Position numbers and translations under genes: made by a program. The notes beneath the pieces were generated by a model that was not told where the DNA came from, ran no database searches, and saw only the letters and a program-made list of their open reading frames with translations. A stretch of DNA of 64,000 nt from Chrysomallon squamiferum (Eukaryota > Animalia > Mollusca), in NCBI GenBank assembly GCA_012295275.1, contig CM022675.1, forward strand, positions 3,224,001 to 3,288,000, written 5' to 3'. Positions 1,668-57,273 of this stretch are shown here, piece by piece (position 1 is the stretch's first letter; every line of letters starts with the position of its first letter).

Positions 1668-2456
1668 AACACAGATTAAGTAGAAGTAGTATGTAAGTAT
1701 TTGTCATTAAAAACAGTGAACACAAAAATATAAAATGGCTAGTCAGAAAAGTCTAGTGTTCACTTTCTTTTCCTTGGAAACATGAATGTTAGCAAACAGC
1801 TCTTATTAATGGATAATTTTTTTTTTTTTTTTTGCATTTTATAAATTTATATTTTTTGCAGGTGTTGCTGTTGGTTTTTCTGTAACTGTCATTATACTTT
1901 TAGTAGTGTGCACAGTTGTCGCTGTTGTTTATATGAAAAGGTAAATAGAGTTACCATTCTTGATTGATGACTTGAGATAACTCTTTATATTTATGTAATA
2001 ATGTTTCAGTTCTTAAATTATTTACTATATATAATAAACAAACATAGAAATAATAATAATATCAAAAATAATAATTATTATTATCATCATTATTATTATT
2101 AATGATTGTCATTATTTTTTAATTGTTATTTTATTTTAGCTTATTTCATGTTAATTGATTGCTATTTTTGAAAAGTAAATATTAAAAATGTATATTTTGT
2201 TTTCTCAATCACACACTTTATCTGTTATTGCAGGAAAAATCTTTTATGTTTTCAACAAAAGTCAGTAGACGTCGCTCACAACAACAGCAACAACTCAGTG
2301 ACTACGACAACAGCAACAGAAACTGAGAACAGTGCAATCAGTGACTCAAATTATGAGCAACTCAGTATGACTCACAGTTCTGAAAATGAGTACATGAGCA
2401 TGCCACGTGAAACAGAACATGTTTACTGTGTAATGGGCTCAAATGTTGAAGATTAA
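865..2456 (+). CDS. Paralog A: 3' part of a CTLD/WSC-family type I membrane receptor, short-tail class (5' exons not found in the window)
   Basis: Stalk exons 865-915 (DFTFHTSTLTDKFTTQT) and 1521-1580; 1221-1271 looks like a stalk exon but its donor reads AT. TM exon 1862-1940 (GVAVGFSVTVIILLVVCTVVAVVYMKR). Tail exon 2234-2456 (KNLLCF...DSNYEQL...EYMSM...HVYCVMGSNVED*). Phases are compatible and TM/tail are homologous to D and E. Confidence 0.8.
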
Positions 2457-6798: not shown

Positions 6799-9433
6799 CA
6801 GTGTTTCTCAACCTTTTTTTACTCTCGACATATCTACGAGCGCATGAAACTGTCGCGACACAGTAATAATTTTAAATATTATATGATGAAATCGTAAAAT
6901 AAATTTAAAAATACGTATATAGACTTGTCTGAAACAGTTTATTATGTTAGTATCCCAGAATTGCCACTTACCTAGTGTGAAACTTGTTCCTGGTTTTGTC
7001 TTATGACTTCTTGAATATTTGGTCGTATGTGCGATAAGCAAACTCTCATTTCTTCTTCAGTGCAACGTAGTCTTTCTCTCTTCTTATTTTTTATATTATT
7101 TAAGGTTGAAAAGCCCAATTCACACAAATAAGGAGTAGAGAATTGTAAAAGAACTAACAGGGCTTTTTCAGCTAATGCGGGAAATTCCTTTTGTATTGAA
7201 ATACAAAATGTGTCGATATCTACCTCAGAATGCTTTATTTTAAGACTGCTGTCACTTGAAATGGTAGCCAATTCTTCTTCTTCGCATAATTTAAACCCAA
7301 TATTAGAAGGAACATCTACAAAAGGATTACGAACCCAGTCGTACTTTTCAGTGTTCAGCGACGGAAAGTAGTGGTCGATGTCTTCTTCGAGCGCTGTCAG
7401 ATGCTCAACCACGATAGGGATCATTTCTTTAGTGCAGTTAGTACGCATTGTAGGAAACATATCAAACTCACCCAACTTTGCTCTGTTTTTCCAAATAACA
7501 ATTTTCTTTTTAAGGGCAACCAACTTATCTGTCGAAGTTAGAATATTTTCGTTTCGACCTTGCATACTACTGTTCACAATATTAAGTTGACCAAATATTT
7601 CAGTCAAATATTCCATTTTGGCCATCCAAAATTCACATCGAGGATATTTACCAAATCTTTCGTGCTTTTCTTTATCAAAAATACTATTAATTCCTTCTGT
7701 AATTCATGAACGCGAGTTAACACTTTACCTATTGACAGCCATCGAACGTCGGTATGCATGAGTAAGCGAACATGTTGAGAATCCATTGACTTGCATAGTT
7801 CTTCGAATAATCTCGACTTTATTGGCCTGCTTTTAATGTAATTGACAATTTCAACTACTTGATGTAACACTTGCTTCAAATCTTCTTGTGATACTTTTGA
7901 AACTAAAACTTCTCTATGTAAAAAGCAATGAGTACGAACAAGATTTGGATTTTCTTTCCGTGCTAGTGATGCAAAACCTTTAATGCAGCCTACCATACAT
8001 GGTGCACCATCAGTACAAATACCAACACAAAACTTCCACGTCAAATTCATTTTTTTAAGATAGCCGGTTATCATATCAAAAATATCTTGACCTCTAGTAG
8101 TTGTTGGCATTTCTTTACAACACAAAAACTGACTGATTATTTCATCATCATTAATGAAACGAACAAATACAAGCAATTGAGCACTGTTACTGATATCGGT
8201 CGATTCATCAACTATTAAAGCAAATTTAGATCCTTCAAGTTTTTTCTGAACATTAGTTTCAATGTTTTCAGATAAATCTACAATTCTCCTGTGTATTGTA
8301 TCATTTGAAAGCGGAATTTTACTAATTTCTTTTTCAGCTGTTTCGCCTAACATGGATTTCACCATCTTTTTACAAGCGGGAAGGATAACTGACTCAGCAA
8401 GAGTGTGGGATTTGAATTTCATTGCTATTATTTCAGCTACCTCAATTGAAGCGAGTTGAGCCCGTTCAGACATGGTCATTGTTTTCTGAAAAACATTGCT
8501 TTGATTGCTGTTGTAACAGTCTTTGAAAATAATTAAGATCTTTATCTTGTAGGTAGGAATGTTTAGTCGTGAAATGTCTTAGTAATTTATTTGGTACCAT
8601 GGATTCATTGGCCATTTTTTCACCACAAACTATACATAATGGACATGGTTGAGCAACATCTCCTGACCAAGGAAATCCAAACTTCAAATAATCATCACAA
8701 TACCGTCTATTATGGTGAACTTTTGCCTTTTTTTGTGCTGGATTTTGTGGGCTTCATTGTATGTTCTGTTTCAACCTCACACCTGTCTCTAACATCCTTC
8801 CTTTTAACAAATTTATCCATTGTGAAGGGGTATTCATCAGCAATTAACACGCGCGTACTCTAACCAACAACAGTAAACAACAGGCAGCGTTAAACTAGTT
8901 ATGATTAGTCACAAGCTAATTTAGTTTAAATTCATCTGTAATTTAGAGGTCAAAATTGAGTGTGCAGTACGATTGAGTTCGATGTAAGTAAATAGTAAAC
9001 ACCGTAAACTGAACAGATTTGCCGTGACGACAGATTTGCATTTGCAAAGTCTGTTCTAACTAGCATAATTTCTTAACTAAATACACCTAGTTAGTTACAT
9101 CTCTTTACTAATAAGTGTTTAAGAATGACAATAATTTAAAACACAGCGAAGTTAATTCGACAACACCACACACACAAACTATCACACTGACGTCTCATGG
9201 GCAACTGATCGACCTTGAGCGAAAGGTGCAAAGGTTGGTGGCCGCCACTGATCGGTGGACTTTGAATGTGTGCATATTCAAGGCATATCCTCCAAGGCAT
9301 ATCAGTAGAACATGAAACCGAGATCTATGCACACTGTCCGTGTTTTCAGGTGTTCGTCACAAAGTTTCGCGACACACCTGAGGGAGCTTCGCGACACACT
9401 TGTGTGTCGCGACACGGCGGTTGAGAATCACTG
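6799..9433 (-). mobile_element. Full-length hAT DNA transposon (Buster/Charlie/SPIN-like)
   Basis: 15-bp TIRs CAGTGTTTCTCAACC (6799) and GGTTGAGAATCACTG (ends 9433), one mismatch. Perfect 8-bp TSD GACTAGAG at 6791-6798 and 9434-9441 with central TA. The empty site (gactagaa) is visible in the paralogous Tc1 copy at ~27979. Confidence 0.95.
6972..8820 (-). pseudogene. hAT transposase (ZBED5/ZBED8/SCAND3-like) broken by three frameshifts
   Basis: ATG at 8820 (MDKFVKRK). Zn finger CIVC...[34 protein letters not shown], and C-terminal FSTPYLCELGFS. Frameshifts near 8730, 8500 and 7680; no in-frame stops inside the aligned segments. Confidence 0.9.
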
Positions 9434-10859: not shown

Positions 10860-11416
10860 CTATTATTAGTTTCTAGACAGAAAACGCTGTACAAAAATAA
10901 TAAATACAAATTTCAGTTTCTGTTAACTATTTAAATAATTTTAGCCAGCCTTTCCGTATTTCTCATTATTATCAAAATCATAACATTATCATCGTCATCT
11001 TAACATAATAACAACATTATCGTAATTATAATCATCGTCGTCGTTGTCGTCATCTTCATAATACTAACTGAATTATCGTAATTACAGTCATCATCATTGC
11101 CATCTTCATCTTCATCATAAAAACGAACACAAAGCAAACAGGTAGATAGTCTATATTTAGCAAGTTTATTTAATACAGACGAGTGAGTTATTTTCTTTCT
11201 AGGACAGCAGACACACTCTGTTCACTTCTTGGTTTAATGTGTTTTAATGCACAGATTAATGTAAGATTTCAAACGAGTTTTAACTACCTCGGTAATAAAA
11301 ATATTTCATTATTATTCATCTACGTATAAATATTTTCGTGTATTACTGGAGATTTTGAAAGGGTTTTTGTAAAAATAGATCAATGTTTTACTTCCTTGTT
11401 CAGTTAACAGGGTGTC

Positions 11417-12123
11417 ATGGCTGAAGTATGGAGTACAAGTCGTCTGCTTCTTACAACTTTTGGCGGGATTTTATATCAGTTGTTATCTGCGTCAGGTAAA
11501 ATATTTTGATTGTTGTGTTTATAATAGTGGGAAGGAAAACAAATTTTTAAAAAGTAGTGAGACTTCCCGGTTATTTTAGATAATTTACGAATGTTTTTAT
11601 TAAGCATATTATCACTGAGTTTTAAATTTAATTTATATTCAGAGTTCTTACCCCCAGCGGCACTTGTTTGAAGAAAGATGTATAAATTGTTATCTTTGTA
11701 GAACAGCAGACACTTTGTCTCACTTCCAAAGTGTAATGTGTAAAGCCTAGCGTAAGATTTCAAACGATTACTGGGTACCTCAGTAATTAAAATGTTTTCC
11801 ATGTATAACTATTTTAGTGTAATAGAGTTTTCGAAGTTGTTATATCGGTTAACAAAATTAATCTTCCTGAAAATGGGTGTCATGGCTGAAGTATGGATTA
11901 AAAGTCAGCGGTTTTCTGCGTCAAGTAAAAAAAAAATAATTACAAGTGCAAACATTTTTATTTTTATTTTGCTATGGCTAGACTTTTGTGGTAGAAAATA
12001 ATATTTTAAAAAGTGGTGAGAATTCCCGATTATTTTTGATAATTTACAAATGTCTTGCAAGTATATTATTATTATTATTTAATTTTGATTCATATTTAGA
12101 TAACTGGCCCTCAGAAGCGCTAG

Positions 12124-12201
<78 letters not shown>

Positions 12202-15200
12202 GTTTAGAAGTTTATTAATTACAGCTATTTGCGTGTATTAAATGACGTCACATGGGATACACGTTTTATACATGTCATCAACATAGTTCTGCAGAGAGAG
12301 AGATTAAATGACGTCAGTTTGTTTAGTAAGTAAACATGGGATTACAGCTACTCTGCGTGTATTAAATGACGTCACATGGGATACAGCGTTTTATACATGT
12401 CATCAACATGGAGAACAACTGTACAGTACGTCAGATATTACATCACTGAGTGACGTCACAGCAGGATCTTACTGGATTGGAGCTAAAGTTCAGTACAGTT
12501 CATGGATGTGGACAGGTGAAATAAATATTTATTAGTTAACTGAGCAGTTACTCAGACCAAAAGTTATGGCATCTGTGAATATGCAGTTGTATTAAATTTA
12601 AATTTAATATGAACAAGTTTATTAGTAAATTTATTAGTAAAATATCAGTATATTTGTAATTGTTGATATTGTTTAATAAATGTACATTTATTGTACTTAG
12701 ATAATTTAAACATGAGCGTTGATATTTGTTCTCCTGCTACAAACAGATTGACTTTATCTAGTCAGGTGATTTAAAATACGTCCACTAAGAATAACTAATT
12801 AACGCAGACACCTAATTAAGATAAAAATGGTGTATTTATGACATTTAATCTTCTTTTCTTAGCACACACATATTAACACACACATATACACACACGCACG
12901 CACAGATGATTTCTTCTTTTTTTTTGTTGTTGTATAGTTGTGGTTGATTTTTCCTTCCTTTTTAAATTATTAGTATTAATATTATTATTATTGGTGGTGT
13001 TGTTATTGTTATTATTAGTAGTAGTTATTATTATCATTGTTATGATTATTATCATTCTTATTATCATCATTATCATCAATAATATCGTTATTATCATTAT
13101 TATTTTATTGTTGTTATTATCATTGTTGTTGTTGTTTGTATTGTTCTTATTTTGTAGCAGTAGTAGTTGCTGTTGTTTTGTTTGATATTAGAATGGTTAT
13201 AAAAGTCCGACTAACAAAACAGGAATGAGAAATAAAGTGAATGCAATTGTATAATATATAAATGTGTGTCCTAGTGCATATCTGTGTGTTGTGTCTTCAT
13301 GTATTTGCCAAATACAGTTTCCATATAAAATTATTGCTTACATTGTAAAATCGATTATATTAAACAAGTGAAATTTTCTTTACAGCGGATAATACACCAC
13401 TGTTTGATTACATTGGAGAAGAAAATGAACATTCAGTATCTGCACAGTTTTATGAAATCAAATATGACAACCAGGCAAGCCGATGTTACTACGAATGTCA
13501 ACACAACAACATTATTGTAATATATGTGGGACTACAGGTTGGTAACATAGATTAAATACATATTTACATAAGAGAGACATACGTACACACATACATATAT
13601 GTGCATAGGTGTAAACAAACATATATACTTACATACGTATATATGTAACTACATACATATACATATAAACTTTAAAACAGTTCTTAGTACTAAAAGAAAA
13701 AGAATATCTGGTTGTCAAATAAATATTTATTACAGTTTAGCAGCAAAGGTTCTTTTACATGAACACAGTTATAGCATTATCTCCGATTAATATGTTACTC
13801 TGTTTGGAACGGGAAACGTATTGAACTGATGTGAAAGTGATAAGAAAGTATCTTTATTTTAACACGTGTTATATTTATTATTTTAAATGTTTGTGTTACA
13901 GAGTGAGAAGTGTTACTGTTTTATCTTGATGAGCTTGATTCCAGTTCCCTTTGAAACTGTTCAAAGAGAAAATAAAACTGCTTGTCTAGGAAACTTCAAA
14001 GAAAACTGTGGGACTGAAAGCACAATGAGTATTTATAAAACAGGTAAAATCTTGTTTACGTCTGTAGACCTTTCTGTGCTCATCTCTTTCGGCAGTTTTG
14101 AGTATTTATTTATTTAGAAGAGGTTTTTTTTTTTTTTTTTTTATTGACACCTTAGGGTTTGATGACAATCCTGTTGCCATAGTGATTCGGAATTCAAGAT
14201 ATTTCAATGTCTTTTGATGTGTATTTAATTTAAAAACGGAATTAATTTATTCTTGATATCATTTTGCAAATAGAATCATAAAAATAAAATACCACTATAA
14301 TGCGAATTTATTATTTTATTCTTATATTTCCCAAAATATATTTATTTATTTAAATATTTATTTTATTTTAAGTTATTTATTTATTTATTTATTTATTTAT
14401 TTGTTTATTTATTTATTTATTTATTTATTTATTTTGTTATTATTTTATTTTTTTTATTTTATCTGTTGCTGTTTCTTGTTTGTTTTTTGTTTATTGTTTT
14501 TTTCTTGTTGTTGTTCTATTTTATTTATTTATTTACAGATTTCACAATCAGATATGTTACGTGGTTACTTGATGTTGATGGTGTTTGTGGCTACATTGAA
14601 CAAAGTGGAAATATTTTTGTGAAAACAGACAAAAACTGTAACACACAGAGAGGATTTGTCTGTGACTGTGAGTGAATATTTCTGTTTCAGTATTGTTATG
14701 TTTGTAAATATAAATTTCACAAAAACATTATTTATTTTTAGTAAAAATCGTTTATTATTATTTATTTATTTATTATTATTATTATTATTTTGTATTTGAT
14801 GTTATTGTTGGTTTCCTTTGGTTTGGGGGATTTTCTTTACTTTTTTTCTAGAACATTTCTCGGTGTATGTGGTGAATGTCTATAATAGTCGATAAAATGT
14901 TTTATTACAAAGCAAATTTATATTCCATAGATATATGTTCTTTTTATTTCAAATATGTTACCTTGACGTTATTTGTTTCTTCGTTTATTACAGGTAGTAG
15001 AAATTACAACAGTACTTCGTGTTACCATCATGATCAGACTCACAGCTGGTTTTCATCTAAAGCAACTTGCTCATTAACAAAACTAAATAAAAACAATCCT
15101 GCAGTAATTAGACTAAAAATGGCGGGTTCTCAGCAGTACTGGATTGGACTAAAACGTGACAAACAAATAGTTTGGTTTGACAGTTTTTACAGTGAGTAAT

Positions 15201-18200
15201 TGTAAAACTGATTCACTCTTAAATCAAAAACTGTTTTTAATTTTTATATATATTCTCATTTTCCTGTCTTTCCTTGTTTTAAGTCATTCTAATTTTGTTT
15301 ATTTACGTTTTTATTTATTAATTATTTTGATATTTCTTTTATTATAAATGTTGTTTTTAGTTTACTTATTTGGTCTACTTGCTACTTATATTAAACAATA
15401 CTGTTTCCAGTTGTTTAATTAAATAGAAAGCTACTTTTATTTCAGAATATGTATCACTGAATATAAACATTACTCAAAATGGCTGTGTGTTGTTAAAAAA
15501 ATCCACAAACGGCAAAATTTCATTTTCAATTATTAACTGTAGTGAAGTCCACTCCGCCATATTTATTAATGGTAAGTATTATTTATTTTTATTTATTTAT
15601 TTAATGTAATCATACACCAGTGTTTCTGAAGTATTTTAATCAGTATTCAATGAATATCATAAAGAATATAATATATGCAAATGACGACTTTCCATCCACT
15701 TGTCAGCATTAACCATTCAGTATTTGAAAATATGAATATGTTATCATCTTCTTTTTTATAGTCACTTACAGGATGTAAACATATTAAATTTGTTTTTAGA
15801 AATTTTCTAAAGAACTAAAACGAAACTGATAATAAGCAATCCTCAAAGGTATTCAGTTACAGTTTTCGTCGAGAACCTGTGGATATTTTATTTGCTCCTT
15901 CTCATTAACAGACGGTTATTGACACTTAATTTGTTAATTGATTTATGAAGCACTTGACGAAACAAGCAATAACCAAATGTGCACTGAGGAAGGTCTAACG
16001 GTTAAACAAATAATGGTAATCGTTTATGACAGTATTGTCTGTGTATAATAGTAAATTATGGTTAAAATTTATTTAAATATTGTCGATAAAATAGTTTTAA
16101 ATACTTAGTTACATATTTTGTATATTACAGATTCCAGTTTTCAAATATCTAACATTCCAAGCAGTGAAACAAACAAAATAAGTCCAGGTATTAAAAACAA
16201 TGTATTTTTAATCTTTGGATTATTTTATATTAAGAAATTTATAAAAGTGGATGGATGGACGGATATATAGATACACATGTTAATACAGACTGTAAATATA
16301 GATAGCTATTTGTTCTTAGCTGTTGGAAATCTTACTCTTTTTTTTTTTATTTTCTAATTTTTTTGTCGATTTGAAATTAATAATTCTTGTAAAACAATTT
16401 TGGACTTCTCGCTTTCTTTTGTACTGAAACAATCAAATATTCTGATGAATAAAAAGTGATGACCTAAAACGTTTCCAGATCAAAAAATTGTTCTTATATT
16501 ACCAGATACCAGTTAAACTAAAAAATCTGATTTTGATTTTATTCAGATCAAGATCTGTTCACAAAATGTTCATCATGTTTATTAATACGTTGTTAAAACA
16601 TTTGATTTTATCTCCTTCAAATCTGTTAGTTGCGAGTTCCTCTAAAATAACAACTTCAAGAGAAGACAAAACAGTCAAAAATCCCCTTCATTAGAAACGT
16701 CTTAAAGGGAGGCAACTTTGTTCCCTTCAGTATTACATAAAATCATTATTTAATTTAAAAAATACTTATTAACTTCTTTAAATTTATGATTAAACCATTG
16801 TTAGTGTAATTTTCAAATACAAAACATAACTTTTGAAACATTTTTAAAATAATGTATATACATACTTGATGTTAACAGAGAATTCTAACAAAATAATAAA
16901 ATATTAGATATTATTTATTATTATACTGAAATTAATAATAGCAGAAGTGTAGAAGTTGTTTTATTACTTCAGTTTTTGTATTTGTTAAGATTAGGAGTGG
17001 CAGTGTTAATTCTTGTTGCTGTTACTATAGTACTACTAGTAAAATAAGTTATATTAATTTTGTTTTTATTATGACAATAGTAGTAGTATTGCTATTGTTG
17101 TTGCTGTTTATTATTATTTTTATCACTATCATCATTTATATTGTCATCATCATTATAATTGTCATTACTACTACTATTACTACTATTATTATTTGTTTTG
17201 TTGTTGTCATTGTTATTGTAATTATTGTTGTTCTTGTTAATATTCTTGGTTTTATCAATATGTTGTTCTTGTTAATGTTATTATTGTCGTTTGTAATTGT
17301 TACTGTTAATATTCTTTTTATTATTGTTTTTATTGTTGTTACTGTTGTTGTTGTTTTTGTTGTTGTAGGTGCTGATGATACAAAATCTCAGATTCTTATT
17401 GAAAATGAAAACGATCAAACAGGTACAATTCCCAAAATGACTGTATTTTAGTTTTCAATATTCATTTGTATACTTTGATGAATGTACTTGCACAAAATTA
17501 TTAAACAAAATATATATATATCTTACCTCTGTAAGAAAAATAAAGAAAAAAGAAATATGTAAAATTTAAAAATACTTCCTCTAAATTTTGACTGTAATAC
17601 TAACCTTAAACAAAACTAATTTAAAATAATTATACTGTCAATAACAAAATAGTCAATACTGATTTATAAATATTCATTTATATTATAATTTATATTGCAG
17701 TTTAGGTTATTAATACGTTATTGTTGTTGTTGTTGTTGTTGTTGTTATTATTATTATTATCATCATCATCATTATTCTTTATAAATGTTTTCGTTTGTTT
17801 GTTTGTTTATTTATTTATTTATTTATTTATTTATCTGTGTAGGTGTTGCTGTGGGTGTTTGTATTACTCTAATTCTACTTGTAGTTGGAGCTGTTGTTGT
17901 GACAGTCTGGATGAAAAGGTAAACAAACACATCCACGTTACAAGCTTATTTAAAAAAAAAAAAAAAAAAAAAACGAAAAAAAATTATTCAACTGCGACTA
18001 TTCCTAATTATTTATTTATTTATTTATCTTTTTAATTTCTTTGTTATATTTATTTGCATGTCTATTCATTTTTTTATTTTTTTTTTTTTTGCTTGTTTCT
18101 TTTTTCTTTTTCCATTTTTTTCTCTCTCTCTCTTCAGATCACATAAATTTTGTTTCAAGATTAAACAAGAAAGCAGCATGACTCGACAAATCAGATCTGT

Positions 18201-18762
18201 GAATCAGCAAAATTTGTCAGATTACGATGAGATCAAACCAGGAACTGTTTCAAATTACGAGTTTGAAACTCTAACAAATGTTACCATGGCAACCAAGCCA
18301 AACTCCAGTGACTACGAACTTGCAGCTGATGTGAATACAGCGAATGTTCAAACAAGCTCCAGTGACTATGAATTGGCAACCACTATGGATGCAGCAACTG
18401 CTCAAACAAACAACAGCTACTACAACGACATTGATGAAGATGACTACAAAGTCCTAAATAACAGTCAAATAAACAAGAATGTCAACTACAACCACACTGA
18501 CATCAACGTTGAAGGTGATTATGATAGAACTGAATCAAAACCAAAGTCCATGTCTGTTCATGACAAAACATACAACCACATCAGAGACGTCATGGAAGGT
18601 GATTACGATACAACAGCATCAAAGTCAACATCTTCTTGTGATGAGACATACAACCACATCACTGCTGTAACTGAAGACGACTACAACATCGCTGAGATGG
18701 ATCTGAAAAATGCTGACTACACCAGTGATGATTATAACCACCTTAATTCTGTGAGAGGTTGA
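11417..18762 (+). CDS. Paralog C: CTLD(WSC-inserted)-CTLD-stalk-TM receptor with long Tyr-rich tail, about 601 aa
   Basis: Exons 11417-11495 (signal peptide MAEVWSTSRLLLTTFGGILYQLLSAS), 12348-12515, 13386-13537, 13902-14043, 14539-14667, 14994-15191, 15446-15571, 16131-16187, 17369-17422, TM 17843-17918, tail 18138-18762. All GT-AG, total 1806 nt, open frame. The stalk exon at ~16630-16735 is decayed and assumed skipped. Confidence 0.8.
11650..12100 (+). repeat. Tandem partial duplicate of the paralog C upstream region and exon 1, inside intron 1
   Basis: A second gggtgtcATGGCTGAAGTATGG at ~11882 with an internal deletion of exon 1. Flanks repeat 11200-11660. Confidence 0.7.
12130..12198. 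repeat. (GA)n microsatellite in intron 1 of paralog C
   Basis: Perfect GA run just upstream of exon 2. Same position as the GA run in paralog E. Confidence 0.95.
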
Positions 18763-19665: not shown

Positions 19666-20009
19666 TTAATCTTCAACGTTTGAACCCATTACGCAATAAA
19701 CATGTTCTGTTTCATGTGGCACGTTCATGTACTCATTTTGAGAACTTTGAGTTCTGTTGAGTCGCTCATAATTTGAGTCACTGATTGCACTGTTCTCAGT
19801 TTCTGTTACTGTTGTCGGAGTCACCGAGTTGTCGCCGTTGAGAGCGACGTCTGCTGACTTTTATTGAAAACAAAAAACAGTTTTCCTGCAATAAGAAATA
19901 AACTGCCTGAGAGTTAGAAAAATATATATAAATTTTTAATATTTTTTTTTAAATGATTATTATATTATTATTATTGTTATTATTATTTTATTATTGTTAC
20001 TATTACTAC

Positions 20010-20041
<32 letters not shown>

Positions 20042-22574
20042 TTATTATTATTTATTTGTTTCTTTGGTGTTTCTTTTTTATATATAATATCTATACATTA
20101 AGTAATTTTAACAATTGAAACATTATTATATTAATACAAAAACGTATCTCATGTCGTCAGTCAAGAACGGTAACTCTATTTACCTTTTCATATAAACAAG
20201 AGCGACAACTGTGCACACTACTAAAAGTATAATGACAGCTACAGAAACACCAACAGCAACGTCTGCAAAAATATAAATTTATAAACTACAACAACAAAAA
20301 TTTAAATAAATATTATCCATTAGCAACAAATGTTTGCTAACGTACATGTTTCCAATGAAAATACGAATACATACTCTATTATATATATATATATATATAT
20401 CGTGTGTGTGTGTGTGTGTGCTGACAAAGGAGAGTGTGTTTATACATAAACATTTGTCATTTTAACCATATATACAGATAAATCTTTTGATCTGGAAACA
20501 TTTTTGGTCATCACTCGAATTCGGCATATTATCATCAGAATATTTTATCAGCTCAATAAATATATTTCAACAACAATGAAACAACACTCCATAATTGCTT
20601 CACAAATCGTCCAAAAACAACACAAACAAAAAACCTATCTATATATCTATATGTATTTATGTATATCTCTTTCTATCTATCCATCTATCTGTCTTATCTA
20701 TCTCTCTTTCTCGATTTCTGTGTGTCTGCTATTACTGCTACTCCTACTATAAAAAATGCATCAGTTCTGCTATTATTAATTTCAGTATGATAATAAATAA
20801 TATCTAATATTTTATTCTTGTGTTAGAATTCTTTGTTAACGACAAATACGTACACACGTTATTTTATACATGTTACGGTATTTCATTTAATATTTGGTTT
20901 GTTAAGTTTCAAAAGTTATTTATTTGGGTGTTTGTGAAATTACTCTAACAATGGTTTAATCATAAATATCAATTATGATTTTAAACAAATTATTAATTAA
21001 GTATTTATGAAGGGAAATAATTGTTTTACTTATTACAGAAATAAACGCTGTTGTCTCCCTTCCAGAGTTTTCAGATGCAGACGACTCGAAAACAGTTTTA
21101 TCTTCTCTTGAAGTTGTTATTTCAGAGGAACTTGGAATTAACAAATTTGAATGAGATAAAGCCGTATATTTTAACTTATTTAGAAAATGTTTAGATCATA
21201 ACTGGAATATGCCATTTTATTATTACAGATTATAACTGCTTTAAAAACAGTCCAAAAAAAATAATTAAATAGAAAGAAAAAAATGAAAGAAAGAACAGCA
21301 AACAAAAACGAAAAGCACCATATCTGTATATCTATAACTGTATCTATATATTTGTATGGAAGTATGTATGTATCCATAAGTCTATGCGTATGTCTGTCTG
21401 TCAGTCGATCTCTTTTTAATAATTTCATAAAATAGAATTATCCAAAGATTAAAAACAGATTAGTATTAATACCTGGACTTGGAAGGTTAGATGTTCGAAA
21501 CCTGGAATCTATAAAATATAAAATATAAAATTATGTTTTTAAAAATTATTTTTATTGACAGTATTAAAATATCTGTCAGTCTAAGTTTACTATCATACAC
21601 TGACCATACTGTTGTTAACGAATGCCATTATTTGTATAACTATTGCACCTAAACTTCCTCAGTGCACAATGGGCTATTGCTTGTTTCATCCAGCGCTTCG
21701 TAAATTATTTAGTATAAGTGTGAATAAACTTCTGTCAGTAAGATTGAGTATAGTTTCTAACTGAATACCAAATATAGCCATTTATTTATAATTCTGGAGA
21801 AAATACATATACATACATATATTAATATCCAGTAGATGATGACAAACAAGTAATCGGTTTGTTCAGATATACAAAAGAGGTTTATAGGCTCAGATTTTCA
21901 AAGAATCACTAGTTATGAATAAAATAATAAATGAATAAATGAATAAATAAATAATACTTACTAATAATACAAATGGCGGAATGGTGGGTACTGCAGTTAC
22001 TGATTAAAAATGAAATTTAGCCACTTGAGGATTTTTCTAACAACACGCAGCCATTTTGTTTGATGTTTATATTCAGCGTTTTATCTTCTAAAATTGAAAT
22101 AATATAATCAAAAGAAGAAGAAGATCAAACTAACAAACACAACCTAGTAAAAATAATGTTTCTCTTCGTCTTAACTTGAACAAAATAACTCACTGAAATG
22201 ACTGTCAATCCGGACTATTTGTTTATGACGTTTTAATCCAATCCACTATTTTGTATTAATCCAATCCACTATACCATAAAAGTCGTCTTACTATTTCAGC
22301 GTTATTTCTGTTTAGTTTTGCTAACACACAGCTTGAATTAGATGAAAACCAGCTCTTAGTCATGTGATGATTGTAACATGAGTTCCTAGAATAGTCTCCT
22401 GTACCTGAGGAAAAAAACAAAGAAAAAATATTTAAATTATTGTACATAGCAACATGGTGTTTTAAATGAAACGATGCTAATCGAACACAAGAATATGTGT
22501 TAAACTATGTAATTTATGAAATAATTTTTAACAGTTTTAGGTGATATTTTGTTTTAGAATTGTATATATTATTA

Positions 22575-22607
<33 letters not shown>

Positions 22608-24698
22608 TATAATTATAATAATAATAATTAAGAATTTTAAAAATTAATTTTACTGAGCACAATTGTTATGCCTAAAAATAGTTTTGGATAAAATTGTATC
22701 TTATCTTCGTGTACATCTCAGTAACAGCTGAAAGCTTTATTAACATGTCATTGAACTTACAAACTGCATTTAAGAGCAACCTAAAAATATATTCTACCTT
22801 CCATGCACTGTCTGTTTTCTAAAGGGAGGGAGGGGGAGAACAGAAGTTTTAGTTTTGGATAGTGTACGTACTAAGAGGAATAAGATTACAATCGTAGCTA
22901 TGTTCGATCATGTTTTTTCATTTCGATTTCGATTGACACACATGTCATCTGAATATGATGATTAAATCGAAATAGTTCTTGTTATTGCTTGGTTCATCCC
23001 AAAACTACCGCCGATTTCTCATCTTTTTTCTCAGTTTTCAAGTCCTTGTTTCCAGTTTTTATACTACAGTTATCACTTCTCCTTAATACTGATACACTTT
23101 CTTGTTGTCCTGTGTTAAGTTAAAAGAAAACGTTTATCCACAAGAAAACAAACAAACAAACAATCCTATATTACCTCCCCTAAAACAACAACAGAATTAC
23201 ACAAAACAAGCAAAAACCAAAAAAAGCAAAACAAAGGAAATGTCCAGTAAAAAACTCCCAAACAAACAGAAAAACAAAATAAAACCACTGAAATGATGCC
23301 AACTATGCTTACAGATTAACGAAAATTGAAGCAATAGATGTGACCTTTATAATGCGCTTTGAAACGGCACTGCTTTGAACTTAGGCGAATCTGAAACATC
23401 CATCAGTTTATAATCAGTGTTAACTCAGTGCTGTTTGTGTACGCCAGAAATATGTAATATTCAAGTACCAAATGCCAGTTTTATAATCCCAGTTCATGTG
23501 GCAATTCCTTAGTACAAAATATTACTTTGACGTTTGTACTTCAGTTTCAGCAAGGACCAAATCCGTACATAGTCTCGGATTCAATGGTTTCTCTGTCATG
23601 AACTCCTTTTCTAAGTCATTCATGTCAAACATCATGTTAAAGCTGTTTGCTGATGCTGGACTTTCATTGTGTACCGTATGATACAAATTTAGTAAATCGA
23701 ACAAATAGCATTCATAGCATTTTTATTAGTTTCTTCTTTTTAGCTGTCATCTTCGAGTTTTTGACAACCTTCTTTCCGTCACGTTTAAATAAAAATAACT
23801 GTGGCATTTAACATAATGAAAACTGAGATATCTGAACATCTGCATTTTGGAAAAATCATGGATGTGAATTTTCCTGCTAGTGTCAGTTGTGTTGTGAGCA
23901 TCAAGAGTGGCAGTTGATAAATTACACGTGTGTACACGTCAGTCGAAAACGTTCAAAATACGTGAACACGAATACGAATAAAATATTTAGAAATGTTTTG
24001 AAGAGCAAAGAATATAAAAATTAAGTAACCTGCAGAACATCATAATTATTACTGTAAATCAGTCGGGTCACCTCACTGTGCTCGACCTGTTCAATCCACT
24101 TTTCGGTGACATACTTCGCAAATCTTAAAACTTGTGGATTCTCTAGATCGGCTTGGATTCCCATTTTAACGACACTGATTATAGCGACTGAAGTGTTCGG
24201 CCGTATTACTTAATGTTTTCTAATCCCTACAGACTGCGGGCACAGTGAGGTTAACCCAATCAGTCAGTTAATATAAAAAAAAGTAAAAAACATGTTATAA
24301 TATTGTTCTTAATTAATCAGGTCAGTTTCACTATATTATAAGTGAAAATATTCAAAATGTAAAACGTATATAAACTATTCAAATATGAACGCTTTAAAAC
24401 TGGCTTTGAATGTGTATAAGGGATTATGTGTCTAAACTGCATATTAAAATGGTTAACTCACAGTTACAAATAAATCCTTTTTTTGTTTCACAGTCCTCTT
24501 CTGTTTTGATTATTAATTTGGATGAATCTTGTTTTACAAATCCACATATACCGTGAATACCCAAATCGACAGATATATCTGTAAAAACAACAACAAAAAA
24601 ACAACAACAAACAATTAATTATATACATACTAGTAACAGTGGAATATCAGTAATGGTAGAAATAGTTATAATACAGTTAGTGCAGTAGTAGTAGTAGC

Positions 24699-24731
<33 letters not shown>

Positions 24732-26209
24732 GGTAGTGGTAGTAACAGTTTTAGTGGTGATATTAGTAGTATGAGTGCCTGTAAAAGCTGTAGAATATAA
24801 TTAAAACTGATATAACAAAAAGCATTGAGGCACACAGAAAGATGTTACTAATCCTAGGATCATCCTTCTTATAGTTTCATTAAATGTTCTTAGAGTTAAA
24901 TTCAGCAAGAATTTTTTTTATTTTACATAGCTCTTCTTTCTTTCGTTTCTTTATTTTTAAAGATAAATAAAATAAATTTTGTTTTTTAATAAAGATTTTA
25001 TGAAAGTATTTTCGTTAAAGTAAACAAATGAACATAAAAACTAATTATAGCCGTTACCTTCAGATAAATATTGTTTTTGTTACCTGTTTGATCGTTATTA
25101 AAAATCTCAGATTCTGTAGCATCAGTACCTACAACAACAGCAATAAAAAGAGCAACAACAAATACAACAACAATAATAACATTAACAATAATAATAACAA
25201 TAAAAAATAATGATAGTAATAATAACTAGAACAAGAAAAACGATGATAATGAGAACAATAAAACAAATAATAATAGTGGTAATAGTACTAGTAATGATAA
25301 TTATAATCGTAATAATGACAGTACTGATAATGATTATTATGATGAATATGGTAATAACAATAATGATAATGATGATAATAATAATAACAGTGATAAAAAA
25401 AATAATGGTAATAACAACACAGCTAATAATTGTAGCTTATTTTGTTACCACATCATTAAGGATTTGTTTTGTATTTGTGGATGTTCTGCTCATTTATAAT
25501 GAGCAAAATTAACAGATGTAGTAAAATGTTACCTATTTTATAAACACTCATTGTGTTTTCAGTCCCGCAGTTTTCTCTGAAGTTTCCCAAACAACCAGTT
25601 TTATTTTCTTTATTAACAAATGTAAGTGGAAGCTGAAACCAGTCTATCAAGTTAAAACAGCAACACTTCTCTCTCTGCAATTCAAACATTTAAAATAATA
25701 AATAAATGCCTGTGTATATGTACGTGTACATATATGTATGTATATGCGGCTGTGTTTATGCTTGCCTGTTTGCATGCATGTGGATGTGTGTGTGTGTGTG
25801 CATTTTTCTGTGTCTTTGTGTATTATTTACTTAATCTGTGTTACTAACCTGTAATCCAACATATCTTACACTTGCAGTAGTTTTGTGTTTTTTACATTCG
25901 TAGTAACATCGACTTGCCTGGTTGTCGTATTTTATTTGATAAAACTTTAAAGATTTTAATTCATTCACTTCTGTGAGATAATCAAACAGTGGTGTGTTAT
26001 CCGCTGTAAAACAAAATTCATTTGTTTAATATAATCAGTTTTACAACATAAGCAATCATTTTGTGTATAAAATGAAGTCAGACTCACATACGCACACACA
26101 CACAAACACACACACACACAGATTAGCTTGACGTTCAAAAACTATACTAATAACAAAGCAAACAATAGCATCTACTACTAGCACAATAATAATAATAATG
26201 ATGATGATG

Positions 26210-26257
<48 letters not shown>

Positions 26258-27025
26258 TAACAGCAATTTTTATTTAATAAAAGCAATGTAAAATTAGTTT
26301 AAAAAGGAAAAGAGAAAAACAACAACACACAGCCGTAAGAAAAAGACAACACAACAACAAAGAAAAACTAATATATATATTTATTTTTGTAAAAAAAATC
26401 GAAGATTTAATTGTCGTTAGCATATTATTTTTTTATCTTAATTAGCTGTGTCAATTATACATTGCTGTTGTGATCTATTTTATATCACGTGACAAAAGAA
26501 ATGCTATCTTTAAAGAAGGGAGAACAAATATCGAAGCTTATATTTAGTAAAATCTGTTGTTTAATTTTCTTATTGTGTATGTAACGACAGTAAATGCACT
26601 GTATTAAACAATATTAACAATATTTTTATAATAAATGTACCAATACACTTGCTCATATTAAACAATAATATAAATTTAATACAGATGAATATTCACAGTC
26701 GCCATAACTTTTGATCTGAGTATTACTTTAGATTTTGTGATCGTAACTGCTCATTTGAACAACTTAATAATTTACATCACCTGTCCACTTCCAGGAACTG
26801 TACTGAACTTTAGCTCCAATCCAGTAAGATCCTGCTGTGACATCACTCAGTGATGTAATATCTAACGTACTGTACAGTTGTTCTCCATGTTGATGACATG
26901 TATAAAACGCTGTATCCCATGTGACGTCATTTAATACACGCAGAGTAGCTGTAATGAAACGGCTGACACAAAATCCCGCCGAAAATTGTAAGATGCAGAC
27001 GACTTGTAATCCATACTTCAGCCAT
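19666..27025 (-). pseudogene. Paralog D: full-length pseudogene, short-tail class
   Basis: ATG 27025; exon 1 is fused to the end of intron 1 (frameshift). Exons 26948-26781, 26003-25849, 25674-25533, 24578-24462, 22404-22194 (internal duplication giving a stop), 22087-21962 (TAA at 22017-22019), 21508-21473, TM 20262-20184, tail 19885-19666 (TAA at 19861-19863). Confidence 0.9.
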
Positions 27026-30503: not shown

Positions 30504-38516
<8,013 letters not shown>

Positions 38517-40622: not shown

Positions 40623-40993
40623 GAAAAAACATTCAGTACATATTACTTGATTATAGTCTTTAATGTTTGTTGATAACTTGAATTACTAATTATTTCTTTC
40701 TACAAATTGGTGTCAAAGTGTGTGAAAATAAAAAAATAAAAAGAATAAGAAATTACAGTTACAACTTAAGAAAAAAAGAAAAAAGAAATACAGTTTATGA
40801 AATTCCATTGCATATTAATTATTATTCATTCTTATTGTTTGAATTTAAGATAAAGTTTAATTTCTTAACTAATAATACACATCAGTAATGGAAAATTAAT
40901 CTATGTATTTTCCTTTCAGGGTGCAGAAAAGAAAGTTTATGACTTTCTCAAAGATATGCACTTTTTGGTTACATTTTGAAAAACTGCTGCACT

Positions 40994-42362
<1,369 letters not shown>

Positions 42363-43262: not shown

Positions 43263-46200
43263 ATGGCTGAACTATGGGGCACAAGTCATCTGCTTCTTAC
43301 AATTTTTGGCCTGATTTTCTCTCAGCTGTTCTCTGCATCAGGAAAAATATTTATCTTTTGTTATTCTGTTGTATGTAATTAAATAGCATTTATAAAGTCA
43401 TCAAATTTATTTATGTATGAATAAAATTATGTTACATATATAGGTAACTATCTCCTACCTACCAAACTACTTACCTAGTTACATACAAATACCATTATTT
43501 TAATTTAAGCCCCTTTTTTTGTACATAACTAAATAGCATTAATGAAAGAGACAGAGAAAAAGACAGAGATTATAAAGTTAGTTTTATAAGTAAATTTATT
43601 CTGTTTTATTACAGCTACTCTGCGTGTATTAAATGACGTCACATGGGATACTGCATTTTATACATGTCATAAACATGGAGAACAACTGTACAGTACGTCA
43701 GATATTACATCACTGAGTGATGTCACAGCTGGATCTTATTGACTGGAGCTAAAGTTCAGTACAGTTCATGGATGTGGACAGGTGATATAAATTATTATTT
43801 TGTTGTACTGTGCAGTTACAATCACAAAATTAAAGAAATAAGCAGACCAAAAATTATGATGACTGAATATTCAGTTGTATTAAATTTATATTACTTTTTT
43901 ATATGTGCACAATAATTTATACATTTATTAAATATACTTGCTAATATTGTTTAACAGTATGAATTTATTATTGTTACACAATAAGGTATAAAATACAAAA
44001 CTATAATAATAACTAAAATAGATTTTATTTAGCTTTAGTACCAGTGTTTCTCTATCAATGCTATAACTAGGCAGCTAGTGAAATGGTGTAAAATACATGT
44101 ATGTCTAATTAACACAGCTAAGTAAAATATCTATATATTACATTTACTACAATTCTTTTCATTTAACCCAGATATTTTTTTTATTTATGTATTTTACACT
44201 GACTGATGTTCTCTTTGTATTATTGTTATTGTTATTGTTATTGTTATTATTAATATTATGATTATTATTATTATTATTATTGCTGCAGCACAAATCGTTG
44301 TTTTATTAGTTGAATATTAGTTCAATATTTATCTAGTTTTTAACAGATTCAGAAAAGAAATGCATGTATATTTCTGGTATTTTATGTTTTCAAAATTGAT
44401 TATTTTAAACAAATAAAGTTTGTTTTACAGCGGATAACACACCACTATTTGATTACACTGGAGAAGTGAATGAATCACAATCTGAACAGTTTTATCAAAT
44501 CAAATACGACAACCAGGCAAGCCGATGTTACTACGAATGTCAACAACACAAAACTACTGCAAGTGTAATGTATGTGGGATTGCAGGTTGGTAACATAGAT
44601 TTATTTATGATTTATTTATTAAGCTTACATAAAATGGACACACACCCACTCATAAAGCCTAGGAATGCTTATTAAGACCATAAACAAAGTATATCTGGTT
44701 GTAGTCACTAAAACAATGATCGTTAACAATTAGCAGCAAGAATCTTTTACATGAATACAGTTATATCATTGTCTGTGATTAACATGTTACCCTGTTTGGA
44801 ATGGGAAACAAATTCTGTTGATGTGAAAGTGGGAAGAAATTATTGTTATTTTGACAAGTGTTATTTTAAATGTTTGTGTTACAGGGAGAGAAGTGTTACT
44901 GTTTTAACTGGAGAAGCTGGAATCAGATTTCACATGAATCTTTTCAAACAGAAAAGAAAACTACTTGTTTGGGAAACTTCAAAGAAAACTGGAACAGAAA
45001 TTACAATGAGTATTTATAAAACAGGTAATATTTGGTATATGAATGTAGATTTTTTTTATATTCATGTCTATCTGTGATACTGTCAGCAATCTTGAATTTT
45101 TCTTATTTTTCTATTTATTTAATTTTATTTCATTATGTTTCGTTTATTATCTTTTTCATATTTTGTTTTTGTTTACTTACTTCATTTTATTTTATTTGTT
45201 ATATTTATTTACAGATTTCACAATCAGCTATGTTACGTGATTACTTGATGTTGATGGTGTTTGTGGCTACATTGACCAAAGTGTAAATATTTTTGTGAAA
45301 ACAGATAGAAACTGTAACAGAAAGAGAGGATTTGTCTGTGACTGTGAGTGAATATTTCTGTTTCAATGTTGTTATTTTTGTAAGTTGTAAAAGACAACAC
45401 AAAGACAGTCATGAAATGTTGGAGATTTTTTCCCCATTAATCACTGTAGTTAGAAAGCTGTTTATATATATAAATATATATAACAGTTTTATTCCTGTAC
45501 TGAACATCATCATCATCATCATCATTCCAGGTTCACTTTTGACAGCATATACTGTTCAAAATATTACAATATATGGGACATTTGCAATGATGTAATTTTT
45601 ACTTTATTTACATTATTATTATTATTAACTTGTTTCTTTGGAATTGCCATTTATTTTGATTTTATTGTTGTGTTGTTATTGTTTATATGTTTACTTATGT
45701 ATTACAGGTGCTGAAGATTACAACAATGCTTCATGTTATCATCATGACAAGACTCACAGCTGGTTTTCATCTAACTCAACTTGCTCATTAACCAAACTAA
45801 ATAAAAATAATGCTGAACTAATTAGAAGAGAAATGAATGGTGGAGTACAGTACTGGATTGGACTAAAACGTGACAGACAAATAGTTTGGTTTAACAGTTT
45901 TTACACTGAGTTATTGTAAAACTGATTCACTCTTAAATCAAAAACTTTTCTTAATTTTTATTTATGTTCTCATGTAGATGATTTACGTTTTTATTTCAAT
46001 TATTATTGTTGTTGTTGTTATTGTTATTAAATGTGGTTGTTTATTTATTTACTGACATACTAACTTACTTATTTACGATTTCTAGCAAATTTTAAAAATA
46101 TTTTTCTTTTTATTTGTTAGATTATATAAACAAAAAGATACATTGAATTTCAGATGAAACACTGAATATAAACATGACACAAAATGGTTGTGTATTGCTG

Positions 46201-46276
46201 GACAAATTCTCAAATGGCAAAACTTCATTTTCAGTTACTAACTGTAGTGATGTCCACTCTTCCATTTGTATTAGGA
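43263..46276 (+). pseudogene. Paralog F: pseudogene with a C-like ectodomain; 3' part lost at the assembly gap
   Basis: Exon 1 43263-43341 (donor GA), exon 2 43615-43781 (1-nt deletion, TGA 43740-43742), 44431-44585, 44885-45024 (2-nt deletion at the CG motif), 45215-45343 (TGG>TGA 45238-45240), 45708-45905 (donor CT), 46154-46276. Confidence 0.9.
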
Positions 46277-46590
46277 GTAAGTATTATTCTTTTTATTTTA
46301 TTTTATTTTTTTTTTCTCACAAAGGAGGTAATATATGTACTTGGTATCATCTTCATCTACCACTCCAATTCATAATCTGGTAAATTTATTTATTTATGGG
46401 TGTGAAATATGTAAGTTTATTCCATACCACCCTATTTTCAAATCAGATTAGCATTGTTCATTAAGATCTGTATGTGTGTACATACATGAAATTAATTTAA
46501 ATGTTTTCTAACAAGAATATTTTACTGTGACTGACAAAATAAATAAATAATTAAAAACTAAATTAAATTAAAAAATATATTGTTTTTAGA

Positions 46591-47235: not shown

Positions 47236-49358
47236 CTAACACGTACACATTTCTAACATGTACGTATTTCTAGCATGTACGTATTTCTAGCATGTACATA
47301 TTTCTAGCATGTACATATTTCTAACATGTACATATTTCTAGCATGTACATATTTCTAACATATACGTATTTCTAGCATGTACATATTTCTAACATGTACA
47401 CATTTCTAACATGTACGTATTTCTAACAAGTACGTATTTCTAACATGTACATATTTCTAACATGTATGTATTTCTAACATGTACATATTTCTAACATGTA
47501 CGTATTTCTAACAAGTACGTATTTCTAACATGTACATATTTCTAACATGTACATATTTCTAACATGTACGTATTTCTAACATGTACATATTTCTAACACG
47601 TACATATTTATAACATGTACGTATTTCTAACATGTACGTATTTCTAACATGTACGTATTTCTAACATGTACACATTTCTAACATGCACGTATTTCTAACA
47701 TGTATGTATTTCTAACATGTACGTATTTCTAACATGTACGTATTTCTAACATGTACGTATTTCTAACATGTACACATTTCTAACATGTACACATTTCTAA
47801 CATGTATGTATTTCTAACATGTACATATTTCTAACATGTACGTATTTCTAACATGTACGTATTTCTAACATGTATGTATTTCTAAAATGTACACATTTCT
47901 AACATGTATGTATTTCTAACATGTACGTATTTCTAACATGTACGTATTTCTAACATGTACGTATTTCTAACATGTACACATTTCTAACATGTACGTATTT
48001 CTCACATGTACGTATTTCTAACATGTACGTATTTCTAACATGTACGTATTTCTAACATGTACGTATTTCTCACATGTACGTATTTCTAACATGTACACAT
48101 TTCTAACATGTACACATTTCTAACATGTATGTATTTCTAACATGTACATATTTCTAACATGTACGTATTTCTAACATGTACGTATTTCTAACATGTATGT
48201 ATTTCTAAAATGTACACATTTCTAACATGTATGTATTTCTAAAATGTACACATTTCTAACATGTATGTATTTCTAACATGTACGTATTTCTAACATGTAC
48301 ATATTTCTAACATGTACATATTTCTAACATGTACGTATTTCTAACATGTACGTATTTCTAACATGTACATATTTCTAACATGTACACATTTCTAACATGT
48401 ACATATTTCTAACATGTACGTATTTCTAACATAAACACATTTCTAACATGTACACATTTCTAACATGTACACATTTCTAACATGTACGTATTTCTAACAT
48501 GTACATATTTCTAACATGTACACATTTCTAACATGTACATATTTCTAACATGTACGTATTTCTAACATGTACATATTTCTAACATGTACACATTTCTAAC
48601 ACGTACATATTTCTAACATGTACGTATTTCTAACGTACATATTTCTAACATGTATGTATTTCTAACATGTACATATTTCTAACATGTATGTATTTCTAAC
48701 ATGTAAGTATTTCTAACGTACATATTTCTAACATGTACATATTTCTAACACGTACACATTTCTAACATGTACGTATTTCTAACATGTACGTATTTCTAAC
48801 ATGTACATATTTCTAACATGTACACATTTCTAACATGTACATATTTCTAACATGTACATATTTCTAACACGTACACATTTCTAACATGTAAGTATTTCTA
48901 ACATGTACGTATTTCTAACATGTACGTATTTCTAACATGTACATATTTCTAACATGTACATATTCTAACATGTACGTATTTCTAACATGCATGTATTTCT
49001 AACACGTACATATTTCTAACATGTACATATTTCTAACATGTACATATTTCTAACATGTACATATTCTAACATGTACGTATTTCTAACATGCATGTATTTC
49101 TACAATGTACATATTTCTAACATGCACATATTTCTAACACGTACGTATTTCTAACATGTACATATTTCTAACACGTACGTATTTCTAACACGTACGTATT
49201 TCTAACATGTACATATTTCTAACATGTACATATTTCTAACGTGTATATATTTTTAACATGTACATATTTCTAACGTGTACATATTTCTAACATGTACATA
49301 TTTCTAACATGAACACATTTCTAACATGTATGTATTTCTAACATGTATGTATTTCTAA
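47236..49358. repeat. 17-bp tandem satellite (TATTTCTAACATGTACG)n, roughly 125 copies
   Basis: Direct period-17 array. Most variants fall at the CG dinucleotide. Confidence 0.97.
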
Positions 49359-50366
49359 TTAGATGGTAGAATGTCTGTAGAAAATGGTCCACTGAAATTT
49401 ACAGTGGAAAGGTTCAAGCTAAAAAGCAGTGCAACAACTTGGTCAAAGTCTCTGCGACGCGAACCCGAGTGTTTTGATAACGCCAGATTAAAAGACTGTC
49501 TTGTAAAAAGTACAAACAAAACATCTGAGAGAGATCCCATACCAGCGTTTAAAAGTCTGAAAAGATATAAACATTTATCGGATTGATATATATAATTTGT
49601 TCACTGGAAACACATACATGCATAAATATTGTAAATGCACCCATGTCAAAATGAGGACCTATTTATGGGTCTCACTATAGTATGTATGTGTGTATACATA
49701 AATGCTGGTATCCAGCCTGTCATCTCCCACCTACAGCAATGGTAGCCTGTTTCTTTGTCTACACACACACACACACAGACACACATACACACACAGAGAC
49801 ACACACATACACATACACACCCACAGACACACACCCACACATATACAGACAGAAACACACACACACAGACAGACTGTACAACTGAAAAAACACCTCTGAA
49901 AACAATTCAAGTCCAGATCAGGGTGTAGCAGGTGCCCATCCCCCACAGATTACTACAAACATTTGCCATAACTTGTTTGTTCAGCAAGTCTTTGTAGTGA
50001 CGTCATTTACAGTCAGAGTATTTACTTTGTTGCAGACACATCTCTGACTGAACACTGACAACATGGCCACATAGTGTGTTCAACAAACAAAACATACAGT
50101 AACATGATTAATTAAATCTTTTGTTTATGAAGGAAATGTGAGGAACTTATTTCCTTATAGGTTAAAACCACTCACTTGTGTAATTACAGTTATTGTTAGG
50201 TGTTATTAGTACTAATACACACAAGTATCCAGGAATTACCCAGCAACGGCACATGCGCAGTGAAATGTGAAATACCTCTGTTCAGTAAATTTATCAGTAT
50301 ATAAATGACTAAACATAACCAAAACTAAACATACACAAATATACATATATCTGTCTCTGCCTGTTT

Positions 50367-50704: not shown

Positions 50705-57273
<6,569 letters not shown>

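Follow-up and report, generated by a model that had tools for sequence, protein, structure and literature searches.

In C-type lectin domains (CTLDs), the long loop between strands beta2 and beta3 carries the E/Q-P-D/N motif and strand beta4 carries the W-N-D motif, as described in the available parts of PMC6468738 and PMC9630629. WSC domains, represented by the CRD of yeast Wsc1 (7PZ2) and by Kremen1 (5FWS), adopt a PAN/Apple-like fold marked by CxxxC, GL, CxC, C..CG and SxY, and are located either at the N-terminus or between Kringle and CUB. The disulfides of Wsc1 connect C27 with C86, C49 with C69, C53 with C71, and C90 with C98 (PMC9024836, available part). Eight cysteines are present in 49 of the 55 canonical WSC domains that we collected. 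In polycystin-1, the WSC and CTL domains are separate and arranged in series. Both belong to the ectodomain of this protein (PMC9672506, available part), an 11-TM protein with no sign of kinship with the family described here. For bivalves, Saco et al. name CTL plus WSC among the domain combinations found (PMC10140915); in the available part of that paper the pair is listed as a combination with nesting unmentioned, whereas the present family is from gastropods and has a nested order. The genome paper on Gigantopelta counts C-type lectins, and WSC is absent from the available part of its main text (PMC7895826); in that of PMC8242945, WSC appears only in a legend list. The layout reported below is real and conserved, and no description of a WSC domain nested in a CTLD was found in the literature searched, supplements and subscription papers aside.

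The window, that is, the whole 64-kb stretch of Chrysomallon squamiferum DNA that was analysed, is AT-rich (GC 0.24-0.38) and holds a tandem cluster of spliced receptor genes in seven copies, A to G, only three of which (C, E and G) are intact. Gene C comprises 11 exons, bounded by GT-AG, with an open frame of 601 codons (11417-18762), giving a type I membrane protein of 601 aa in the order signal peptide, CTLD N-half, WSC, CTLD C-half, second CTLD, stalk, TM and Tyr-rich tail. Exons 2-5 join in frame, with phases of 1-1 for exon 2, 1-0 for exon 3, 0-1 for exon 4 and 1-1 for exon 5, and exons 3 and 4 together are flanked on both sides by phase-1 introns. An earlier note, made from the letters alone, had proposed the succession of N-half, WSC and C-half with the insert at the long loop, and coordinates, frame and motifs bear it out. 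The features of the window, with the evidence for each exon of gene C in brackets, are as follows.

11417..11495, forward strand: gene C exon 1, signal-peptide-like N-terminus (sequence; RNA joint to exon 2)
12348..12515, forward strand: gene C exon 2, CTLD N-half comprising alpha1 with C1, alpha2, the WIG strand and WxW (profiles)
13386..13537, forward strand: gene C exon 3, start of the CTLD long loop (DNTPLF), then the WSC N-half (profiles, alignment, loose ends of RNA contigs)
13902..14043, forward strand: gene C exon 4, WSC C-half with CxC, sixth Cys absent, C7-C8 and the SxY strand (profiles)
14539..14667, forward strand: gene C exon 5, CTLD C-half, beta3-beta4-beta5 with three Cys (profiles, alignment)
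14994..15191, forward strand: gene C exon 6, N-half of the second CTLD (profiles)
15446..15571, forward strand: gene C exon 7, C-half of the second CTLD (sequence; Lectin_C match of homologue P0009)
16131-16187, 17369-17422 and 17843-17918, forward strand: gene C exons 8-10, short Ser/Thr stalk and transmembrane helix (sequence)
18138..18762, forward strand: gene C exon 11, cytoplasmic tail of 208 aa with 15 Tyr and two ITIM-like matches (sequence)
19666..27025, reverse strand: paralogue D, layout as in C, exon 6 frameshifted and exon 7 interrupted by a stop
30504..38515, forward strand: paralogue E, intact, 450 aa, layout as in C, short tail
43263..46279, forward strand: paralogue F, layout as in C, exons 2 and 4 frameshifted, exon 5 interrupted by a stop, 3' part missing because of an assembly gap
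51259..57273, forward strand: paralogue G, intact, 708 aa, 24-26% identical to C/D/E and closest to Gigantopelta P0009/P0010
3534..6293, reverse strand: fragment B, exon 7, TM and tail, with stops
1864..2308, forward strand: fragment A, TM exon and start of the tail of a further copy, running off the window

Thus, D, E, F and G share the layout, as the earlier note had it, but D and F are broken genes, with stops or frameshifts. Mis-assembly or a chance exon order was considered and rejected, the order being identical in five genes of the window and in RefSeq proteins of two lineages. The upstream exons of fragment B were looked for in the window and none was found; upstream of the fragment, at the place expected for them, lies a broken transposase remnant (DUF4371, E 2e-5; ~6900-8820, minus strand), which we take to be hAT-like. 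Other observations on the window include a partial duplicate of exon 2 directly upstream of gene C exon 2 (12221-12347), the acceptor of which has a pyrimidine tract poor relative to the paralogues, pieces of a SelO gene between E and F (40921-42330; Pfam SelO, E 2e-10), the second exon of which is duplicated, and long minisatellite arrays at 47250-49360 and 59600-60860 with units of ~20 and ~40 bases.

The family is expressed and spliced in this exon order, as seen in contigs placed on exons 1-4, which come from three RNA runs belonging to one study and from a further run whose kind is unrecorded. RNA depth is concentrated on exon bins, the GT..AG joint between exons 1 and 2 is present in all three RNA runs, loose contig ends past exon 2 match exon 3 starts in two runs, and joints across intron 3 occur in two runs. 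The step from exon 4 to exon 5 is seen through loose ends: in one run, five contigs agree by eye with the beginning of exon 5 at 27 of 30 positions. The contigs are 85-100% alike, and the splice order is therefore that of the family rather than of gene C as their source. In run X1, across 11300-14460, the summed contig depth on exons is tens to ~100 times that of most intron bins, an excess that, although depth is no copy number, hints at a family much larger than seven copies.

The identity of exons 3 and 4 as a WSC domain is solid: the motifs named in the earlier note are present, and profile, Pfam (in three of nine homologues), PDB and fold matches agree with its assignment. On a profile of the 55 canonical WSC domains, exons 3+4 of C, D, E and G score 25-31 bits, reached by none of 1000 shuffles in any of the four genes, a test that is partly circular for exon 4 because the canonical set was gathered using this exon. 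For exon 3 alone, the independent part, 1-4 of 1000 shuffles reach the WSC score, and its alignment is off register in gene C. Among nine homologues, Pfam WSC (PF01822, gathering score 27.8 bits) is above cut-off in three, from abalone (P0023, 29.5 bits; P0027, 29.8 bits; P0028, 31 bits), below it in three and absent from three, and exon 4 of G alone obtains 15 bits. The best PDB match of the family profile is Wsc1 (7PZ2, residues 19-111, E 8e-6) over the whole domain length; a profile of exon 3 has no PDB match. In the AlphaFold model of P0009, which was built from an alignment that included canonical WSC rows, residues 81-130 have a pLDDT of 84-90 and the same PAN/Apple fold as Wsc1 and Kremen1. 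The model matches Wsc1 with a Foldseek probability of 1.00 (TM by target 0.67, rmsd 3.4), and by structure comparison it resembles both Wsc1 (Z 9.1, rmsd 3.0, 93 aligned) and Kremen1 (Z 8.2, rmsd 3.1, 83 aligned). The ESM Atlas, queried with P0009 25-235, returned feature matches below 0.9 and structure matches with TM below 0.5, with WSC, PAN and Lectin_C as leads.

While the fold and motifs are those of Wsc1 and Kremen1, the family differs from them in two respects. Its WSC lies between the two halves of another domain, and it retains six of the eight cysteines, a number found in all ten sequences listed, with one extra in an insertion of P0010; the family thus departs from the usual WSC set of eight cysteines in four disulfides. 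In exon 3 of gene C, the WSC part has the CxxxC helix and GLQ, and the first Cys is replaced. The earlier note described the missing first and sixth cysteines as a disulfide pair, correctly so, as C1-C6 of Wsc1 is C27-C86 (PMC9024836, available part).

Searching 1.84 billion representatives with a profile built from four exon-4 sequences yielded 24 matches, made up of 4 family members, 15 multi-WSC proteins and 5 repeat artefacts, and further homologue searches found family members in 3 of 571 and 3 of 2362 candidates. Every named member is annotated as an 'uncharacterized' protein, from either Gigantopelta or Haliotis, and the layout is common to Neomphalida and Haliotis; the closest database protein is P0021 of Gigantopelta aegis, 53-55% identical to C/D/E. 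A word-based search with exon 2 of G yielded none among 8 candidates, a metagenome scan for family loci returned one unrelated canonical CTLD only, and a phage search gave nothing relevant. Two variants of the exon set were seen: the CTLD N-half exon is skipped in P0027 (Haliotis rufescens LOC124137087 isoform X2) and P0030 is without the second N-half, and either layout would leave an orphan C-half.

The lectin halves that flank the WSC domain were assigned as follows. Exon 2 alone matches Lectin_C at positions 3-57 of 107 (E 0.074), and a profile of six N-half exons matches 112 PDB sequences at E<=1, the 60 matches listed all being CTLD proteins; CLEC9A is matched over 13-81. Together with the quoted motifs, all present, these matches sustain exon 2 as a CTLD N-half. 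For exon 5, claimed as the C-half, the profile has a single PDB match among 177,635 sequences, namely the C-half of CLEC9A (97-124, E 0.0045), and a shuffle test agrees in three of four genes: scored on an independent CTLD profile of 12 sequences, exon 5 exceeds 2000 of 2000 shuffles in C, D and E, and does not do so in G (598 of 2000). One unguided alignment placed 11 of 11 canonical C-halves on the columns of exon 5 with Cys in register, a placement unstable in other row sets. Profile-profile comparisons of exon 5 did not reach significance, at E 0.23 against exon 7, where three Cys were in register, and at E 0.019 against canonical CTLDs; a profile made from 118 prokaryotic and phage CTLDs, most of them poor in Cys, left exon 5 unrecognised. 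The second CTLD is seen in exon 6 of G (Lectin_C, E 7e-4) and in P0009, where Lectin_C covers 2-106 of 107 positions at this region.

The insertion point falls within the long loop. DNTPLF, at the start of exon 3, aligns with the long-loop start of canonical CTLDs, which puts the beginning of the WSC a few residues into the loop; the location at the loop claimed earlier holds, but the boundary is not at the intron. In six homologues, Lectin_C matches end at profile positions 63-73 of 107, just ahead of the WSC. As claimed, EPN and QPD are absent, and neither these motifs nor WND occur in the ectodomains of C, E and G. In these absences, in the N- and C-half motifs and in the C1-C4 pattern, the family is like canonical CTLDs (PF00059) of the non-Ca2+ type such as CLEC9A; it differs from them in that a 90-residue folded domain takes the place of the long loop, in its type I topology and in having two tandem CTLD units. 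Myxobacterial CTLDs (L135-L164; G001, G002) carry variable insertions directly after the same DG-x-x-F position, suggesting that this site is tolerant of insertions.

Which C-half closes exon 2 is where the possible readings diverge, and the WSC sits in the long-loop position of a lectin whether the halves are simply nested or swapped. The reading that we prefer, with a probability of about 0.48, is that exon 5 closes exon 2 as one CTLD with the WSC nested within it. Modelled as two chains, exon 2 and exon 5 of gene C scored 0.34 against 0.13 for the best control; 51 of 78 solved pairs and 2 of 108 mismatched ones attain the mark, and passes at 0.60 or under count as weak. The runs agree in at least 82% of contacts, the partner pLDDT is at least 60, and both halves, at a pLDDT of 35-53 in controls, climb to 60-64 when modelled together. 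The two-chain fold gives weak support to this pairing, as a pass may stem from likeness to solved CTLDs and is blind to which half in the family is the true partner. Against the pairing, adding exon 5 to exon 2 brings a gain of only ~2 bits on our own CTLD profile. Awkward for a core shared by the two exons is that exon 2 is 95-98% identical among C/D/E and exon 5 is 32-47% identical.

The AlphaFold models of P0009 are less confident outside the WSC. The first, from 18 rows, has a pLDDT of 41.5, and a Foldseek search with it gave nothing; the second, from 48 rows, reaches 63 with outside N-half and WSC rows in the alignment and outside C-half rows left out, as no subset among 177 drawn at random brought the outside rows for the three parts (N-half, WSC and C-half) into register together. 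In the second model, exon 5 forms three strands with Cys in CTLD order, and the superpositions on CTLDs (Z 4-5) extend from residue ~14 to 330 rather than ending at the exon-5 end at 213; the last strand is out of register, aligned to the beta3 region of the CTLD and not to beta5. Foldseek with this model gave weak, partial CTLD rows only. Neither model builds a full CTLD from exon 2, which would fit a scenario in which the WSC insertion broke the first CTLD and left its halves as unfolded or differently folded linkers round a stand-alone WSC, as would the lack of the N-half exon altogether in the Haliotis isoform P0027. We consider such a relic improbable, given that two gastropod lineages with ~25% overall identity have both preserved the core Trp, the WIG-type motif, C1 and the Cys pair of beta3/beta4 and that the pLDDT of both halves rises when they are modelled together.

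The cysteines tell a different story from the two-chain fold. Haliotis P0025/P0026 are without C4 of exon 5 and C1 of exon 6, and retain C1 of exon 2 and C4 of exon 7, whereas both of the former cysteines are present in C, D, E, F, G, P0009, P0023 and P0028. If exon 2 pairs with exon 5, this pattern leaves two free thiols; were exon 5 bonded to exon 6 instead, and exon 2 to exon 7, the co-loss would be the clean loss of one disulfide. Exons 2 and 7 would then form an outer CTLD and exons 5 and 6 a circularly permuted inner one, the two cores lying head to head at their long-loop poles and linked by two crossovers, one plain and one carrying the WSC. This arrangement has a single Cys mismatch, against three in two lineages for exon 2 with exon 5, and it agrees with the one residue between C4 of exon 5 and the first Cys of the next domain in C/D/E/F, which is tight for separate domains. 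It is also in line with both AlphaFold models, in which the exon-5 strands run directly into those of exon 6, with the CTLD superpositions from residue ~14 to 330, and with the lesser divergence of exon 7 (50-68% identical) relative to exon 5 (32-47%). Precedents for the exchange are loop swapping between CTLDs in snaclecs (PMC6468738, available part) and segment swapping between collagen IV NC1 subdomains (PMC3779223, available part). In both, the long-loop pole or segments of a CTLD-like fold are used for swapping, and they are analogous to the swapped topology only, as snaclecs swap just the loop, between two chains and without an inserted domain (PMC6468738, available part).

Against the swap, the cysteine evidence comes from one lineage, with two orthologues 87% identical, and gene C itself shows that an unpaired Cys can occur: the mismatch is its exon-7 C4, lost alone and in this gene only, where the last Cys of the exon has become Phe. 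The models, being of low confidence over most of exons 6-7 and having the last strand on the beta3 region, give it no clean support, and exon 2 with exon 5 did pass, if weakly, as two chains. Native half-domain swaps are rare, which we counted against it. On balance, the swapped pairing is a serious but tentative alternative, and the nested pairing of exon 2 with exon 5 is retained as the preferred reading.

Tandem birth-and-death and exon-scale mosaicism have shaped the cluster. Exon 2 is 94-99% identical in nucleotides among paralogues (12348-12515, 26781-26948, 30931-31098 and 43615-43781) while neighbouring exons differ strongly; among C/D/E, dS is 0-0.06 for exon 2, 0.23-0.47 for exons 3-4 and 0.95-1.7 for exon 5. 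Exon 5 is common to C and F at 93%, and exon 3 to E and F at 95%. To judge by these sequence comparisons, the mosaic probably arose through exon-scale exchange between copies. The dN/dS of exons 3-4 is 0.2-1.0, with a maximum of ~1 (exon 4, C-D) and no clear positive selection, and an excess of amino-acid change concentrated in the WSC exons was looked for among the paralogues and not found; with dN/dS at ~1 at most, the WSC is not singled out as a diversifying ligand surface. If the swapped pairing held, the protein might consist of two interlocked lectins, with an outer CTLD (exons 2+7) enclosing the WSC and a circularly permuted CTLD (exons 5+6) in a single-chain, snaclec-like, head-to-head swap, a grafted binding domain on one crossover, and diversification through exchange at exon scale between tandem copies, in snails that have symbiont-hosting vent snails as their closest relatives in databases. 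We hold this fuller picture to be possible, if less likely than not.

Judging from their domains, these proteins are likely calcium-independent recognition receptors. With exons 2 and 5 nested as preferred, the WSC module would interrupt the CTLD at the long loop that normally holds the calcium and sugar site, and exon 5 is predicted to fold back on exon 2, closing one CTLD from the alpha1 Cys to the beta5 Cys. The WSC would bud out because its first and last strands are predicted to lie side by side, and the loss of the C1-C6 bond may go with beta1 being anchored by the host domain instead. The WSC and the variable lectin surfaces could bind microbial glycan or protein, after which receptor clustering might recruit Src-type kinases and SH2 proteins to the tail and signal through its tyrosine motifs. 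ITIM-like [ILVST]xYxx[ILV] matches in the tail number two in C, one in E and none in G, the pattern being short and the counts raw.

Glycan binding by this WSC, like the earlier note's proposal that the grafted domain is the ligand-binding element of a lectin scaffold, would be conjecture by analogy, and the same fold may do another job. The WSC could be a protein-binding or spacer module as in Kremen, with the lectin halves carrying specificity, and the receptors could serve cell adhesion, self-recognition or development instead of detecting glycans of microbes. Single WSC domains are described as having no glycan pocket, Wsc1 among them, and the Kremen WSC binds protein, contacting Dkk1 (PMC9024836, available part). 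Within the family, the exon most diverged among paralogues is exon 5 and not the WSC exons, and its sole PDB match, CLEC9A, is an F-actin-binding CTLD. On the other side are the tandem duplication, pseudogenes, mosaic exons and ITIM-like tail motifs of the cluster, which are typical of immune receptor clusters. SiWsc3, moreover, binds beta-glucan, through three repeated WSC domains (PMC9024836, available part). We hold this alternative role to be possible, with some doubt, and continue to favour the reading as recognition receptors.

The long loop is where CTLDs change function: it forms the sugar site, is deleted in compact CTLDs and is swapped in snaclecs. A whole folded domain placed in its slot is a further solution, one that was not found in the literature searched. 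Because each half scores near or under the cut-off, the receptors are annotated as 'uncharacterized' and would be missed in Pfam-based counts of pattern-recognition receptors in molluscs. Being expanded, expressed and mosaic, the family is a concrete candidate for microbe recognition in gastropods.
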